Shown here: positions 33,009 through 47,264 of the stretch, one piece after another
How positions within the stretch are numbered: position 1 is the first letter of the stretch
Layout of the letters: every line of letters begins with the position of its first letter
DNA from: a candidate division FCPU426 bacterium
Lineage (GTDB): Bacteria; Oederibacteriota; JAAXVQ01; JAUVAV01
Assembly: GCA_040756875.1 (NCBI GenBank)
Contig: JBFLYH010000001.1
Coordinates: forward strand, 1,052,778-1,116,777
DNA length: 64,000 nucleotides
Direction of reading: 5' to 3'
Notes under the pieces: generated by a model
The model's database searches: none
Told to the model about the DNA's origin: nothing
The model's input: only the letters and a program-made list of their open reading frames with translations
Made by a program: the position numbers and the translations under genes

Positions 33009-35501
33009 TTATCCCGCCAATGCCCGCTGTTCTTTTTCCAAGTACAGCGAGGCGTAAATCCGGCGCAATGCCGCGTGCTCCGGCCGGCTGAGCTCAGGGT
33101 CCGCTTCCAGGATGCCGCCGGCTGCCTGGCGCGCGGCTTCGATCTGGTCTGCGTCGCGGATCAAATGTGCGAGCTTGAGATCCGGCAGGCCGTGCTGCCT
33201 GAGCCCGAAGAACTCGCCCGGCCCGCGCAGGGCCAGATCCTCCTCGGCCAGCTTGAAGCCGTCGCGCACTTGGCTCATAACTTCGAGCCGGCGCTTCCCC
33301 TCTTCGGTGGTGGGCTCGCCGATCAGGAAACACTGTGCCGGTTTCGAACTCCGGCCCACCCTTCCGCGCAACTGGTGCAGGCTGGCCAGGCCGAACCGCT
33401 CCGCGTTCTCGATGATCATGACCGTGGCATTGGGAATGTCCACGCCCACTTCCACCACAGTGGTCGCGGCCAGGATCTGGGTGCGGCCGGCCGCGAACTC
33501 GGCCATGATGCGCTCCTTGTCCGGAGTCGGCAGCCGGCCGTGCAGCAACCCCAGGCGGCAGTCAGGAAAGACGCGTTCCAGGCGCTGGTATTCAGTGGCC
33601 AGGGCTTTCAAGTCCAGCTTCTCGGATTCCTCGATCGCCGGGAACACCACGAAGCCCTGCTGCCCCGCGGCTACGGCCTGGGCCAGTTGCTCGTAGGCCT
33701 TGCGGCCGGCCGAGCGCCGCAGCCATTCCGTGTGCACGGGGATGCGGCCGGGCGGAAGCTCGTCGAGCACGCTCACGTCCAGGTCGCCGTACACGGTCAA
33801 GGCCAGGGTCCGGGGGATGGGCGTGGCCGTCATGACCAGCACGTGCGGATGCTCGCCCTTGGCGCGCAACAGGCTCCGCTGCTCCACGCCGAAACGGTGC
33901 TGTTCGTCCACCACGGCCAGCCCCAGGTCGCTGAATTCGACGCCGGCCTGCGTCAGCGCGTGCGTGCCCACGGCCAGGTGGATCCGGCCCGAGGCCAGGT
34001 CCGCGCGCAAGCCGGCTTTGGCCTTGGCCGGCAGGCCCGAGGTGAACAATTCCAGGCGCAGGCCCAGCGGTTCCAGCAGGGGCTTCAGATTCAGGTAATG
34101 CTGGCCGGCCAGGATTTCCGTGGGCGCCATGAGCGCAGCCTGCCGGCCGCTGTCCGCCGCGGCCAGCATGGCCAGGGCGGCCACGATGGTCTTGCCCGAG
34201 CCCACGTCGCCCTGCAGCAGCCGGTGCATGGGCCGCGCCAGCCCGAGATCGCGGCAGATTTCCTGCGTGGCCCGTTCCTGGGCCGTGGTCAGGGCAAACG
34301 GCAGGTTCTGCCGGAAGCGCGCGGCCAGCGGCCCGTTGACCTGCAGGGGCTGGCTGTGCTGGTGCTGGTAGCGGCGCTTCAGCCGGACCACGGCGATCTG
34401 CTGCAGAAACAGCTCCTCGAACACCAGCCGGGCCCGGGCCCGGGCCAGCGAGTCCTGGTCCGGCGGGAAGTGGATGCTGCGCAGCGCCTGCGCGGCCGGG
34501 GCAAAACTTTTTTCCGCGGTCAGCGCGGGCGGCAGGGGGTCGGGCCAATCGTCCGGGATCTGCCCGACCAAGGCGTGCACCAGGCTTCTCACCACGCGCT
34601 GGGAGAGCCGCTCAGTCAGCGGGTAGATGGGCACGATCCGTCCCGTGTGGATCGACTCCTCGGTTTCATCCTCCAGGATTTCATAGTCTGGATTCAGGAC
34701 CTGCCAGGACCGATGAAACTCCACCTTGCCATAGGCCAGCACGCGCTGCCCGTTTTGGAAGCGCTCCATGAGATACGGCTGGTTGAACCACGTGGCCGCG
34801 ATGTGGCCGGTGCCGTCCTCGAGTACCACTTTGGTGATTTTCAGGCCGCGCCGGACCGTGAATGTCTGGCGGGCTTTGACCCTGCCGTCCACCAAAGCCG
34901 TCTGGCCGTGGCGCAGGATCGCGATCTTGGCCGGAGAACGGCGGTCCTGCCAGTCCCGGGGATAGTGCCGCAGCAGGTCCTCGGCCGTGTGCACGCCCAG
35001 GTTGGCGAACAGTTTCGCCCGCTGCGGGCCCACGCCTTTGATATATTGCACCGGGTCCTGCCACTGGAACCCCCCGGCGACCGAAGGTGCCGGGGTACCA
35101 CTCCTGCCATGCGCTTTCCGCATGGCAGGCGGCGACATCCCCGCAGCAGGAGATTCACATTTATCACTCCTGCGAAGGGGAACGATGGGCCGGGCCGGGG
35201 CTGCCGGAGCCGCGGCTGGCGTGGCCTTGGGTTCCGGGGCTTTCGGACCGGCCAGCCGGCTCCAGACTTCGGCCACGAGCCGTTCCCGCTGGTCGGACCG
35301 GGCTTCGGCGTACGCCTCCAGCCCCTCCAGCAGGCGACCGGCTTCGGCGGCCGTCAGCCCGGCCTGGGCCATCAGCTTGTCCCGCACCTGCGGCAGCCAG
35401 CGCTTCATGCCGCCGGCCACGGCCGTGTCCAGGAACCCCAGCCGTTGCTCCAGTTCCAGCGGCTTCAGCAGCCAGCGGACCGCTTCCTGATTGGGTTTCA
35501 T
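33009..35501 (-). CDS. recG: ATP-dependent DNA helicase RecG
   Basis: KGVGP, wedge domain, QGDVGSGKT, DEQHRFGV, MTATPIPRTL, QLRGRVGR, DLALRGPGE. Confidence 0.97.
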   Translation of the reverse strand: MKPNQEAVRWLLKPLELEQRLGFLDTAVAGGMKRWLPQVRDKLMAQAGLTAAEAGRLLEGLEAYAEARSDQRERLVAEVWSRLAGPKAPEPKATPAAAPAAPARPIVPLRRSDKCESPAAGMSPPAMRKAHGRSGTPAPSVAGGFQWQDPVQYIKGVGPQRAKLFANLGVHTAEDLLRHYPRDWQDRRSPAKIAILRHGQTALVDGRVKARQTFTVRRGLKITKVVLEDGTGHIAATWFNQPYLMERFQNGQRVLAYGKVEFHRSWQVLNPDYEILEDETEESIHTGRIVPIYPLTERLSQRVVRSLVHALVGQIPDDWPDPLPPALTAEKSFAPAAQALRSIHFPPDQDSLARARARLVFEELFLQQIAVVRLKRRYQHQHSQPLQVNGPLAARFRQNLPFALTTAQERATQEICRDLGLARPMHRLLQGDVGSGKTIVAALAMLAAADSGRQAALMAPTEILAGQHYLNLKPLLEPLGLRLELFTSGLPAKAKAGLRADLASGRIHLAVGTHALTQAGVEFSDLGLAVVDEQHRFGVEQRSLLRAKGEHPHVLVMTATPIPRTLALTVYGDLDVSVLDELPPGRIPVHTEWLRRSAGRKAYEQLAQAVAAGQQGFVVFPAIEESEKLDLKALATEYQRLERVFPDCRLGLLHGRLPTPDKERIMAEFAAGRTQILAATTVVEVGVDIPNATVMIIENAERFGLASLHQLRGRVGRSSKPAQCFLIGEPTTEEGKRRLEVMSQVRDGFKLAEEDLALRGPGEFFGLRQHGLPDLKLAHLIRDADQIEAARQAAGGILEADPELSRPEHAALRRIYASLYLEKEQRALAG
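35064..35184 (-). repeat. Multi-hairpin palindromic element inserted in frame in recG
   Basis: Three hairpins (incl. perfect CCTGCCATGCG/CGCATGGCAGG); shares ordered blocks with 46809-47046. Confidence 0.75.
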
Positions 35502-35508
35502 TTTTCGC

Positions 35509-35537
35509 TTGTCAAGCTCCCGGGCTCGTGATAGATT
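35509..35537 (+). promoter_or_regulatory. rpmB promoter
   Basis: TTGTCA-17 nt-TAGATT with extended TG. Confidence 0.6.
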
Positions 35538-35572
35538 CAACCCCTACTTTTTTTTTAAAAAGGAGATCGACC

Positions 35573-44322: not shown

Positions 44323-46797
44323 TTAAAACACCACGTTCACCAGCTTGTCCGGCACCACGATCACTTTTTTCGGTTTCCGGCCCTCGGCCAGGGCCGCCAC
44401 GCGTTCGTCCGCCAGGGCCAGCCGCTCCACCTCGGCGGAAGGCGTCCGGGGCGGAAGTTCCAGGCGGCTGCGCACCTTGCCGTTGACCTGGACCACCACG
44501 GTCACCAGTTCCTCGGCCGCAATGGCCTGGTCATGGCGCGGCCAGGGCTGTTTGAACACGCTCTCCGCGCCGCCCAGCATGGCCCACAGTTCCTCGCCCA
44601 GATGCGGGAAGAACGGCGCAGCCAGGCGCGCCAGGGCGTCCAGGGACTCCCGCATCACGGCCGGGTGCGGCGCGCCGGCTGCGCCGGGCTCCGGCAGGCC
44701 GGTCAGCGCGTTGACCAGCTCCATCATGGCCGCGATGGCGGTGTTGAATTTGAAATCCTGGTCCAGGTCCTCGGTGATGCGGCGGATGGTCTGGTGGGTC
44801 TTGCGCCGCAGCTGACGGTCCGTTTCGCCCAGGTCCGCCGGGATGGCCGCTCCGGCAGGCCGCACGGCCTCCTGCCAGCGCTGGTAAAACAAATACACCC
44901 GGCGCAGGAAGCGGAAGATGCCTTCCACGCCCTGGTCCACCCATTCCAGCTCGCGTTCCGGCGGGGCGGCGAACAGGATGAACCCGCGCGTGGTGTCGAT
45001 GCCGAAGCGCCCCACCATTTCGTCCGCGGCCACGGTGTTGCCCTTGGACTTGGACATCACCTGCCCGTCCTTGAGCACCATGCCCTGGGTGAACAAGGCC
45101 GCGAACGGCTCGTCGAACGGCAGCAGGCCGCGGTCGTGCAGGAACTTGGTGAAGAAGCGCGAATACAGCAGGTGGAGGATGGCATGCTCGATGCCGCCGA
45201 TGTACTGGTCCACGGGCATCCAGTAGTTCACGGCCGTGGGATCAAAGACCCGGTTCGCGTCGCGGGGCGACGCGTAACGCAGGTAGTACCAGGATGAGTC
45301 GATGAAGGTGTCCATGGTGTCGGTCTCGCGCCGGGCCGGCTGGCCGCAGCGCGGGCACGGGACCTTGACGAAGGCCTCGGAGGATTCGAGCATGCCCGAG
45401 GCCTGGTACGTCAGGTCCAGGGGCAGGGTCACGGGCAGCTGGTCCTCAGGCACGGGCACCTGCCCGCACTTTTGGCAATAGACGATGGGAATCGGGCAGC
45501 CCCAGTAGCGCTGGCGGGAGATCAGCCAGTCGCGCAGGCGGAAGTTGACCACGCGGCGGCCGATCCCCTGCTGCTCCATCCATTCCGCGATCTTGGTCAT
45601 GGCCGCGCGGTTGGGCAGGCCGTCGAAGGCGCCGCTCCGCACCTGCACGCCGTCCGCCACGAAGGCCTCGGTCATGCCGGCCGGATCGAGGTCGCGGTCT
45701 TCGGGCCGGATGACGACCTTGACCGGCAGGCCATGCGCCCGGGCGAAATCGAAATCGCGCTGGTCGTGCGCGGGCACGGCCATGATCGCGCCCGTGCCGT
45801 ATTCCATCAGCACGTAGTCCGCGGCATAGACCGGGATTTTTTCGCCGGTGGCCGGATTGATGGCGCGCAGGCCCGTGTCCATGCCTTGCTTGGGCTTGGC
45901 GGTCGAGGCGCGCTCGATCTCGCTCTCCAGCTTCACTTTCTCCGCGAACTCCGCCACCAGCGTGCCTTCGGGCTTGCAGGCCAGGAGCTCGGTCAGGATC
46001 GGGTGCTCAGGCGCCACGGACACGTAAGTCACGCCGAACACGGTGTCGATGCGGGTGGTGAACACTTCGAGGTCCCGCTGGGTGCCGTCGATGCGCAGCT
46101 TGAATTCCACGCCCTCGGAGCGGCCGATCCAGTTTTCCTGCATGGTGCGCACGCGCTCCGGCCACTTCTTCAGCTTGGCCAGGTCGTCGAGCAGGCGCTG
46201 GGCGTAATCTGTGATCTTGAGGTACCACTGTTCCAGGTCCCGCTTCCCCACCGGCTGCTTGCAGCGCCAGCAGGCGCCCTCGATCACCTGCTCATTGGCC
46301 AAGACGGTCTTGCACGTGTCGCACCAGTTGACCGGGTTCTTTTTTTTGTACGCCAGTCCGGCCTGGTAAAACTGCAGGAACAGCCACTGCGTCCAGCGGT
46401 AGTATTCGGGGTCGCAGGTGGCCAGTTCCCGGCTCCAGTCGTAGATCAGGTCCAAGGCTTTGAGCTGGCGGGTCATGACCGCGATGTTGTTGCGGGTGTA
46501 CTCGTGGGGATGGATGCCGTTCTTGATGGCTGCGTTCTCGGCCGGCAGGCCGAAAGCGTCCCAGCCCATGGGCGAGAGCACGTTGAACCCCTGCATCAGC
46601 TTGTAGCGGACGATCACGTCTCCGATGGTGTAGTTGCGCACGTGCCCCATGTGCAGGTTGGAGCCCGAGGGGTAAGGAAACATGACCAGGCAATAGTACT
46701 TCGGCTTGGCGGGGTCCTCCTGGACCCGGCCCAGGCCGGATTCATTCCATTTGAGGTGCCATTTTTCCTCGATGGCTTGAAAAGGATATTCTTCCAC
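44323..46797 (-). CDS. leuS: Leucine--tRNA ligase
   Basis: MFPYPSG..HMGH, editing domain ([16 protein letters not shown]), [19 protein letters not shown]. Confidence 0.98.
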
Positions 46798-46808
46798 AAA
46801 ATACTCCT

Positions 46809-47046
46809 CTGGAGCCCCCCGGCCGAATCATCGTAATCCCTTTTACAAAGAAGGCCGGGGTACCCCTGCTGAACTTGGCAGACCCTAACTCCGCAAGGCG
46901 ACCGAAGGTCGTACCTTATTTATCCGGTCGGCGCGACCGAAGGAAGTGCCATCCTTTTAATATCTATCCGGTCGGCGCGACATCCCCGACACAGGAAGCG
47001 CCTATGTTCTCTGTTTGAGAACGTTGATTCCCTGCGTCGGAGACAG
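46809..47046 (-). other. Structured element in the leuS 5' leader (repeat or candidate ncRNA)
   Basis: Several hairpins with G-U pairs on the minus strand; 17-bp direct repeat at 46921-46937 and 46965-46981; homologous blocks inside recG. Confidence 0.6.
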
Positions 47047-47071: not shown

Positions 47072-47101
47072 ATTATAGCACAGGCAAAAAGCGAGGGTCA
47101 A
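47072..47101 (-). promoter_or_regulatory. leuS operon promoter
   Basis: TTGACC-18 nt-TATAAT with extended TG. Confidence 0.75.
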
Positions 47102-47122: not shown

Positions 47123-47264
47123 CCCCTCTCCCCAACGGAGTTGCGGGAGAGGGTGAGGGTGAGGGGTCCAACAATATTCCTTTCGTTTAAAAAGGGTGCC
47201 GCCCCCTCCTCTATCCCCCTTGTGCCCGGTTTTTGGGTATCCCACCAAGAATCCAGGGGAGGGG
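47123..47264. repeat. CCCTCTCCC-hairpin repeat doublet
   Basis: CCCCTCTCCC...GGGAGAGGGTGAGGGTGAGGGG followed by a degenerate inverted partner. Confidence 0.7.

Follow-up and report, generated by a model that had tools for sequence, protein, structure and literature searches.

The closest described systems to the repeat element reported here, which is found inside the recG gene and in the leader of leuS in a 64,000 nucleotide (nt) stretch of contig JBFLYH010000001.1 from a candidate division FCPU426 bacterium (the window, i.e. the whole stretch that was analyzed), are the insertion sequences of the IS200/IS605 type. As described for IS608, the cleavage sites are recognized by guides situated 5′ to the foot of each subterminal palindrome (PMC3201880). 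IS608 is further described as inserting 3′ of a flank tetranucleotide with no DNA gained or lost, as being top-strand specific, and as using the lagging-strand template, and a change in its left guide shifts the target predictably (PMC3201880). Gene-less relatives resembling palindrome-associated transposable elements (PATE) have been described as well (PMC10055086).

Several other families of small repeats also bear comparison. Repetitive extragenic palindromic sequences (REPs) take the form of short single palindromes that bracket, in inverted orientation, a gene for a REP-associated tyrosine transposase (RAYT). The BOX element of Streptococcus pneumoniae has the modular layout boxA-boxB(n)-boxC, and we know of no mechanism established for its mobility. 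Rickettsia palindromic elements (RPEs) are reported mostly inside open reading frames (PMC10969869), and classical miniature inverted-repeat transposable elements, or MITEs, have been described as having terminal inverted repeats and flanking direct repeats and as being typically AT-rich (PMC10969869). The element reported here shows its strongest likeness to the first of these systems. It is probably (probability about 0.72) a gene-less, non-autonomous element that spreads as single-stranded DNA by the IS200/IS605 “peel-and-paste” route.

A short-word BLAST search with the recG and leuS loci against the genome under study (G000, 3.22 Mb, 7 contigs designated C1, C2, C3 and so on) gave partial matches at about 20 further loci. 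A strict pattern of the architecture finds 26 full copies in this genome. A hidden Markov model (HMM) built on 22 of these 26 copies shows 45 matches at a cut-off of E ≤ 0.01, 39 of them near full length, and the genome scan with a covariance model, which the initial annotation had proposed as a check for further copies, yields 44. The likeness between the two loci is therefore no coincidence. The element is 104–184 nt long (median 124–132 nt) with a GC fraction of 0.46–0.70, and consists of three hairpins joined by near-invariant linkers. Its consensus on the sense strand is (A)TCCCC-TYCGCAG-[inner hairpin]-CTGCTNCGGGGAT-GTCGCC-[middle hairpin]-GGTRCCCCGG-[loop]-CCGGGGGGCTCCA(T). In direct orientation, about 6 of 8 stem positions are common to the inner 5′ hairpin and the 3′ hairpin, and there are no terminal inverted repeats in the consensus.

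The predicted structure was tested by pairing. In 22 copies of G000, 82.6% of cells are paired versus 39–59% when the partners are slid, 20 of 35 pairs have changed on both sides, and none of 500 shuffles reaches the observed score. Helix 6 of the tested structure, which is the 3′ hairpin, pairs in 97.5% of cells. Twenty-six copies from 12 other genomes give 85.6% paired cells (35–51% slid), compensatory changes in 22 of 35 pairs and again no shuffle among 500 that reaches the score; the structure alignment of these 26 copies was fitted to the model and leans towards that structure. Thus the earlier observation, made from two copies, that loops differ while stems are kept holds for the family. 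The unpaired linkers are nearly invariant across seven genera. Folding energies calculated for the two strands gave no decision on the strand.

The family was found in 13 of the 31 genomes searched with the covariance model. The element is present in each of the 10 other genomes from the same taxonomic family. The same-genus sister genome (G001) has at least 95 copies among 101 candidates scored, followed by G006 (20), G004 (10), G003 (8), G005 (7), G008 (5) and G002 (3), and there is one copy each in G007, G009 and G010. The four genomes of the sister family that were searched with the covariance model show none. Single weaker matches are present in other families of the phylum, at G026:C79:3135-3268 (E-value = 2e-10) and in G016 (E-value = 2e-4), and these could reflect horizontal transfer or an older origin. 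A permissive DNA pattern was also scanned against the genomes of named species. It produced many single and probably chance matches in GC-rich genomes, and only genomes with multiple matches were used. Most of the records with multiple matches bear the label Candidatus Omnitrophota; four matches are found in one record given as “FCB group bacterium”, and the single matches in GC-rich Actinobacteria and others look like chance.

No Rfam family matches the 64-kb window at gathering score, and a permissive Rfam scan of 8 copies gave a best E-value of 0.31, to a microRNA model, which is a chance match. This is in line with the suggestion in the initial annotation that the family is undescribed, and no description of such an element was found in literature on Omnitrophota/Omnitrophica repeats. 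The element apparently represents a real, lineage-specific and undescribed family.

Three copies in G000 have empty sites in G001, at C2:895459, C3:79584 and C3:94591, as found by BLAST of 14–20-kb blocks. At base level the whole element is missing from G001 at all three sites, the flank tetranucleotide is present, and there is no target duplication. Two of the three copies lie directly after the T-run of an intrinsic terminator. In G001, 20 young copies of equal length display sharp edges and unrelated flanks, and their 3′ flank contains no second copy of the 5′ flank tetranucleotide. Fifteen of these 20 have a mean identity of 92.7% (maximum 100%), with flanks that are 31% identical. Syntenic blocks of G000 and G001 are 74–89% identical, and this subfamily of 15 probably expanded after the two genomes split. 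A target duplication of “AT” had been considered, the flank dinucleotide being the same on both sides in 15 of 27 copies. It was dropped after comparison with the empty sites and young copies, which assign the 3′ AT to the element and the 5′ AT to the target.

Copies also decay in place. The gaps of the infB-DUF503-rbfA operon contain element copies common to G000 and G001, and in G001 the 3′ hairpin of two of these has lost its 5′ arm and its loop. Different sub-variants are present in G000 and G001 at C2:303286. Orthologous copies can lose hairpin arms or most of the element, therefore the structure is not maintained in place. The initial annotation had proposed a mobile structured repeat or a noncoding RNA family. 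The mobile structured repeat is supported by the empty sites, the dispersed copies and the conserved pairing. The noncoding RNA half of the proposal is not favored, given the differences in copy presence between sister genomes, the arm deletions and a covariation with the flanking DNA, described next, which is a hallmark of DNA transposition.

Insertion is directly 3′ of a flank tetranucleotide Y-Y-A-T. Ends were parsed in 128 copies; for this, 60 extra copies were added, 69 + 60 matches were aligned to the model, and one spurious reverse-strand match was dropped. Beside the inner 5′ hairpin is a six-base pre-foot string, A-G-p3-p4-N-A, and the flank can be written (−4)(−3)-A-T. Copies with GG at p3p4 have CC in the flank in 34 of 51 cases, those with AA have TT in 20 of 29, and those with GA have TC in 12 of 22 (CT in 2). 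The test set consisted of 107 copies with a full six-base pre-foot string and a full 8-base flank string. Both positions are complementary (antiparallel Watson-Crick) in 67 of the 107, versus 28.6 ± 4.1 with shuffled flanks, and the maximum in 20,000 flank shuffles was 46. Mutual information peaks at p3:−3 and p4:−4, with 0.40 bits each. By subset, complementarity is found in 27/30 copies from other genera, 31/56 from G001 (P = 1.5e-4) and 9/21 from G000 (P = 0.012). The set contains no G000/G001 pair with matching flanks, so that orthologous insertions are counted once. Because the flank is not inherited with the element, the association between guide and flank reflects target choice.

The guide-target covariation among natural copies parallels, within genomes, the engineered retargeting described for IS608 (PMC3201880; PMC5934647). 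It would point to an active HUH enzyme in uncultured Omnitrophota.

At the left end, 89 of 129 aligned matches have the cleavage point 15 nt away from the hairpin foot. At the right end, the element tip (...GGCTCCAT) ends 8 nt past the right hairpin. In 103 of 121 copies the GG before the right foot has its match in the CC of the CCAT tip, but these positions hardly vary. The right pre-foot base and the last base of the element are A/T in 74 copies, G/C in 15, G/T in 11 and A/C in 8; these positions are co-inherited, and lineage effects are possible. T-runs are found at the 5′ junction in 7 of 31 copies versus 7% of controls (P = 0.005). Insertion after terminators was considered as a rule and rejected, since the T-run excess is now ascribed to the AA-guide subfamily targeting TT.

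In the proposed mechanism, a Y1/HUH tyrosine transposase would act in trans and bind the two end hairpins of the element. The internal guide would find the left cleavage and target site, and the element's own CCAT tip would serve as the right cleavage site. The top strand would then be excised and pasted into single-stranded DNA at replication forks. Several features would follow from this proposal. The orientation would follow the leading-strand sequence and hence gene sense. The AA-guide subfamily would land after terminator T-runs because its guide targets TT, and copies could abut in tandem, as two do at C2:311939-312205, since a CCAT tip would in its turn be a target. An ATG would be regenerated where insertion follows CCAT in a CCAT-G context, with the break at the dash.

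The likenesses to IS200/IS605 are in the ends, the target and the strand. The element has subterminal hairpins at both ends, on the same strand, and is without terminal inverted repeats or target duplication. Its flank tetranucleotide target appears to be chosen by a short internal guide near the left hairpin, and the putative right cleavage site is inside the element. The orientation bias is consistent with insertion into the lagging-strand template, and also fits transcription sense. With PATE the element shares gene-less copies and, as proposed, mobilization in trans.

A number of observations weigh against this mechanism. Forty of the 107 copies do not have full two-base complementarity. 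The guide is situated at −6 to −3 from the foot of the inner hairpin, an offset of 2 nt, whereas in IS608 the guide abuts the foot; the covarying bases are 3–4 nt from the inner foot, inside the outer stem. The guide also keeps its place where the inner hairpin is missing, in the subfamily to which the recG copy belongs. At C3:79584 the junction is off a perfectly scarless insertion by 2–4 bases, in an ambiguous T/AT run. Element ends are present at none of 6 Y1 loci examined (one each in G000, G001, G004 and G006, two in G003), and by coordinates there is no Y1 match within 2 kb of a copy in G003, G004 and G006. The Y1 genes of G000 are in their own 1.1-kb cassettes with unrelated 28-nt inverted repeats. 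The bias towards one replication strand is inseparable from the bias towards transcription sense, since 80–95% of genes are co-oriented with replication. The invariant unpaired linkers in seven genera, and an excess of G.U over A.C pairs (43 versus 29), also fit selection on an RNA.

There are further differences from the described elements. The left cleavage point of IS608 is 19 nt from the foot, in contrast to the 15 nt found here. Only two of four target positions vary and covary in the element, it has three to four helices instead of two simple palindromes, and it hosts a nested mini-module with a duplicated GTCGCC at its borders. A tnpA or tnpB with element ends was not found at the 6 Y1 loci or, for TnpB, in 5 genomes.

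The search for an enzyme covered five genomes (G000, G001, G006, G004 and G003). Y1_Tnp (PF01797) is found in all five, and open frames of this type are 336–350 amino acids (aa) long in each. Y2_Tnp (PF04986, Y2/IS91) is found in G001 only. RVT_1 (PF00078) is found in three of the five, and not in G001, the genome with the most copies. The 10-kb neighborhoods of both G000 Y1 genes have only 10–15-nt chance words in common with 26 copies. Inverted solo core motifs at C1:1202230 and 1203478, 1.25 kb apart, were examined as a possible autonomous partner, and are chance matches in ordinary genes. As far as sequence search of these genomes goes, no cognate transposase is linked to the element.

One form of the single-strand transposition reading is that resident, vertically kept RAYT/TIRYT-type Y1 proteins of about 340 aa move the element in trans, in a manner resembling REP and RAYT. 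As with REPs and bacterial interspersed mosaic elements (BIMEs) with their RAYTs, and with TIRYT/TIRtron, there are GC-rich hairpin repeats between genes and the genomes keep single-copy Y1/HUH genes; REP/BIME are also related in principle to IS200/IS605 ends. Proteins of this Y1 type are encoded in all five genomes, and one Y1 copy has intact catalytic motifs. Three young copies in G001 (C2:82469, 86476 and 95016) lie 3–5 kb from two Y1 genes, where about 0.55 would be expected within the 17.5-kb span concerned at the genome-wide density, although this is suggestive only. The unrelated inverted repeats of the Y1 genes and the lack of an element end beside any of the 6 Y1 loci stand against this sub-case, and the co-occurrence is in kin and thus not independent. 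The element also differs from REP/RAYT in being a composite of 104–184 nt that flanks none of the Y1 genes examined, and its hairpin sequences vary between copies while the linkers stay constant. This sub-case is put forward tentatively, with the balance of evidence somewhat against it.

The Y1 cassette at C1:1039773-1040873 has 28-nt terminal inverted repeats and encodes a protein with the motifs H-I-H and Y-I-H-L-N-P and a long C-terminal tail. A second Y1/HUH gene is found 6 kb from this cassette.

The genomic context of 39 copies in G000 was classified with a gene map of 2,411 genes based on codon usage. In gaps between genes of the same direction, 23 copies are sense to both neighbors and 4 are antisense. 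Seven copies are in divergent gaps, 3 in convergent gaps and 2 inside open reading frames, both of these sense. In 34 of the 39, as judged by GC skew, the sense strand corresponds to the leading-strand sequence.

This context could instead suggest a functional structured RNA family, i.e. a cis-regulatory leader, a stabilizer or a protein-binding RNA that has been copied around the genome for its effect on flanking genes, with selection on the transcript keeping hairpins and linkers. The sense orientation in 23 of 27 informative same-direction gaps and in both intragenic copies fits such an RNA, as do the strong covariation in the structure, the linkers that are near-invariant across seven genera and the excess of G.U over A.C on the sense strand. 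The leuS copy is situated between a putative promoter and the start codon and would be transcribed. However, copies are found beside unrelated genes, after terminators, in convergent (3/39) and antisense (4/39) positions, before a tRNA gene and in open reading frames. Sister genomes do not have all copies in common, hairpin arms or most of the element can be missing from orthologous copies, and the sense bias is confounded with replication direction. An RNA also gives no explanation for the covariation between an internal dinucleotide and the flanking DNA, and no Rfam family was matched by the 64-kb window or by 8 copies. The RNA family is thus considered unlikely.

Possible effects on host genes, which would be secondary, concern places where the element meets a start codon, and these also enter on the side of an RNA function. 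ATGs are found directly after the tips GGGAGGCTCC at rbfA and GGGGGGCTCC at the DUF503 gene. The Pfam profiles are matched from their first position, at residue 5 for RbfA and at residue 3 for DUF503. The ATGs after the tips are therefore the true starts, and at these two genes the element tip truly abuts the start codon. Both joints, GGGAGGCTCC-ATG and GGGGGGCTCC-ATG, are kept in G000 and G001, even where a hairpin arm is deleted, and the 16S 3′ end is canonical. The G-rich tips before rbfA and the DUF503 gene are therefore plausible ribosome-binding sites. That the element ends at a start codon was rejected as a general rule: a G follows CTCCAT in about one third of copies (6/18; ~7/18 in G000), which is near base composition.

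Two other contacts with genes were seen in G000. At C1:1326860-1326983 the upstream open reading frame reads through the copy and has its stop 15 nt inside the next gene, and the ATG of that next gene is directly after the element tip. This copy may have replaced a C-terminus of the upstream open reading frame. A copy at C3:15438-15578 lies immediately 5′ of a tRNA gene and is oriented like that gene.

A PATE-type element with an omega-RNA scaffold as its core, which a TnpB or IscB nuclease would use in trans while guarding the element against loss, would account for a conserved structured core that ends at the right end and for a 5′-flank motif that could be a target-adjacent motif, and PATE elements are described as often encoding omega-RNAs acted on in trans (PMC10055086). 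It is very improbable: both TnpB profiles (PF07282 and PF01385) give no match in any of the five genomes, G001 included, with controls positive in 8 of 14 (IscB was not searched for), no omega-RNA-like Rfam family was matched, and the element is short (median 124–132 nt). Least probable, and largely refuted, is a classical MITE that stems from an insertion sequence with a DDE transposase and moves by double-strand cut-and-paste, since, despite the MITE-like traits of a small, non-coding, multi-copy, mostly intergenic element with a stable transcript fold (as described in PMC10969869), the 5′ end ATCCCCTCCGCAGG is unlike the reverse complement of the 3′ end, ATGGAGCCCCCCGG, leaving no terminal inverted repeats, there is no target duplication at the three empty sites or in the 20 young copies, the GC fraction is 0.46–0.70 where MITEs are described as typically AT-rich (PMC10969869), and the orientation is strongly strand-biased and accompanied by guide-target covariation.

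A more comprehensive reading can be proposed, which as a whole is speculative and has the odds against it. The element would be a natural, gene-less, guide-programmed single-strand transposon family confined to one Omnitrophota lineage, with subfamilies retargeted by two guide bases (to CC, TC and TT). It would be moved by a domesticated RAYT/TIRYT-type or other HUH enzyme without element ends. It would carry a second-order parasite, a mini-hairpin that inserts at GTCGCC with duplication of that word and expands into arrays, and the G-rich tip of the element would have been recruited by essential genes, rbfA among them, as a ribosome-binding site.

For annotation, the single-strand transposition reading means that in this lineage about 40 to over 95 loci per genome would be scars of a mobile element and not leaders, small RNAs or protein features. 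For evolution, it would be a case of a selfish hairpin element tolerated in a helicase linker, in a tRNA-synthetase leader and at operon junctions, with a tip that can end up as a translation start region. Should the link to an enzyme fail, the family would keep its value as a well-defined marker repeat of the lineage.

The two copies in the window, with their genes and parts, are listed in the table.

Table. Features of the recG and leuS loci (positions are those of the window)
Feature	Position	Strand	Remarks
recG	33009..35501	-	start set at the ATG of MKPNQ...; open frame 33009-35540, 843 aa
Element copy in recG	35064..35180	-	117 nt, 39 codons, in frame, no stop; from sequence and translation
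Element tip CTGGAA (sense TTCCAG), recG copy	35064-35069	-	directly after the 3′ hairpin
3′ (right-end) hairpin, recG copy	35070..35095	-	arms CCCCCCGG / CCGGGG, loop CGACCGAAGGTG
Middle hairpin, recG copy	35103..35129	-	11-nt perfect arms CCTGCCATGCG / CGCATGGCAGG; inverted repeat 100% complementary
Linker GGCGACATCCCC (sense GGGGATGTCGCC) and outer 5′ stem, recG copy	35131..35181	-	linker invariant; inverted repeat; helices 1-2
leuS (leucyl-tRNA synthetase)	44323..46797	-	GTG start
Element copy in the leuS 5′ untranslated region	46809..47043	-	~235 nt, two nested extra hairpin modules
Two tandem nested mini-hairpin modules, leuS copy	46897..46981	-	direct repeats; each bounded by the duplicated sense word GTCGC(C/G)
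Putative leuS promoter TTGACC-17 nt-TATAAT	47072..47101	-	consensus only; conserved in G001; upstream of the element

On re-reading, the sequence blocks reported by the initial annotation in the same order and orientation at recG and leuS were all found in place. CTGGA(A/G)CCCCCCGG is at 35064 and 46809, GCCGGGGTACC at 35089 and 46854, GCGACATCCCCG at 35132 and 46977, and GGCGACCGAAGGT at 35076 and 46897. Both genes are on the minus strand, which agrees with the sense orientation it had given for both mRNAs, and the in-frame peptide it had seen in recG is confirmed, stop-free, at residues ~122–160 with 39 codons.

The recG copy gives an HMM match at C1:1087840-1087962 (E-value = 3e-21) and a covariance-model match of 94.1 bits. 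It is a sub-variant without the inner 5′ hairpin and displays the outer stem only, with arms at 35138-35152 and 35167-35181 and an internal loop. The sequence of the middle hairpin differs between sub-variants. RecG itself shows a conserved N-terminal domain of ~110 aa, then a variable linker that contains the element, followed by the wedge and the helicase core; Pfam RecG_wedge begins at residue 163 of the open frame.

RecG was found in 31 of 31 genomes. A RecG-seeded search for relatives was saturated by conserved helicase motifs and gained no close relatives. In an alignment of 19 RecG orthologs, 13 have the conserved ~110-aa N-terminal domain, followed by a linker variable in both length and sequence. 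The element-encoded peptide is absent from the RecG of the other genera among these orthologs. A related peptide is present only in the same-genus G001 (RecG 82% identical), at the same codon position. The G001 recG DNA keeps GTCGCC, a middle hairpin, the 3′ hairpin and the tip, and is without the 5′ stem; its middle hairpin belongs to a different sub-variant from that of G000. By the model search, 2 of 12 recG loci have the copy. The peptide is thus not a conserved feature of RecG and the genome has dozens of further copies, so that the reading of the initial annotation withstands the refuting case it had named. The extra ~39 residues of RecG are, on the evidence of these alignments, an insertion and not a domain.

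The recG copy resembles RPEs as they are described, in that an element of ~100–150 bp is situated in frame in a housekeeping open reading frame and adds a peptide without destroying the protein (PMC10969869). The comparison with RPEs that the initial annotation had drawn is apt for the recG copy but not for the family, as only 2 of 39 copies are intragenic. The lineage is also a different one, and the comparison is by described traits of RPEs. To our knowledge a transposition signature of the present kind has not been described for them.

The N-terminal domain of RecG (window 35185-35501, minus strand, residues ~14–120) is helical-looking and has no Pfam match. It is carried by 13 of the 19 orthologs, which come from the element-bearing family, its sister family and a handful of more distant genomes.

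The leuS copy gives an HMM match at C1:1099584-1099820 and 43.7 bits with the covariance model (E-value = 1.9e-9). It is situated between a sigma-70-like promoter and the Shine-Dalgarno sequence and GTG start of leuS. Because the putative promoter is upstream of the element, the element would be transcribed within the leuS leader. The model search shows an element upstream of leuS at only one of 11 leuS loci, that of G000. Comparison of the leuS leaders of G000 and G001 shows that the promoter and the Shine-Dalgarno/GTG region are conserved, with ~220 extra bases between them in G000. In the G001 leader the 5′ arm is still present in diverged form, TCTCCGACGTGAG, together with CCCTCCA, the 3′ tip. 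The G001 copy is a remnant left by internal deletion, and the insertion is older than the split of G000 and G001. The recG and leuS copies are best read as old, tolerated insertions.

Just upstream of the leuS promoter, at window 47125-47175 (minus strand), is a G/C-rich inverted repeat, CCCCTCACCCTCACCCTCTCCC...GGGGAGAGGGG, which is conserved in G001. It may be the terminator of the upstream gene.

The nested mini-hairpin is ~45–60 nt long and is bounded by the duplicated word GTCGC(C/G). There are 0–2 modules per copy, two being present in the leuS copy. The position of the module within copies varies, and it is polymorphic between G000 and G001. The module is also found in arrays on its own. 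At C2:702890-703200 there are at least 5 identical units of ~59 nt, interrupted by an assembly gap of N, and at C3:214270-214420 there are two units. The module may have arisen by transposition or by slippage. In its mosaic build and variable number of internal modules (0–2 mini-hairpins, with arrays of their own) the element resembles BOX, and effects on the expression of neighboring genes are plausible for it as well; the comparison is by layout, not by sequence. The element differs from BOX in having defined ends and a guide-target signature.

Two other dispersed repeats are found in contig C2 of G000. A different repeat of ~138 nt is present at C2:303078-303216, 70 nt from an element copy, with at least 25 matches in G001 at 82–91% identity. 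Another, of ~108 nt, is found at C2:305281-305389 and at C2:214646-214754 and has at least 20 matches in G001. The sequence at C2:214646-214754 is also a weak match to the element HMM (E-value = 0.002), and the ~108-nt repeat is possibly a distant relative of the element.

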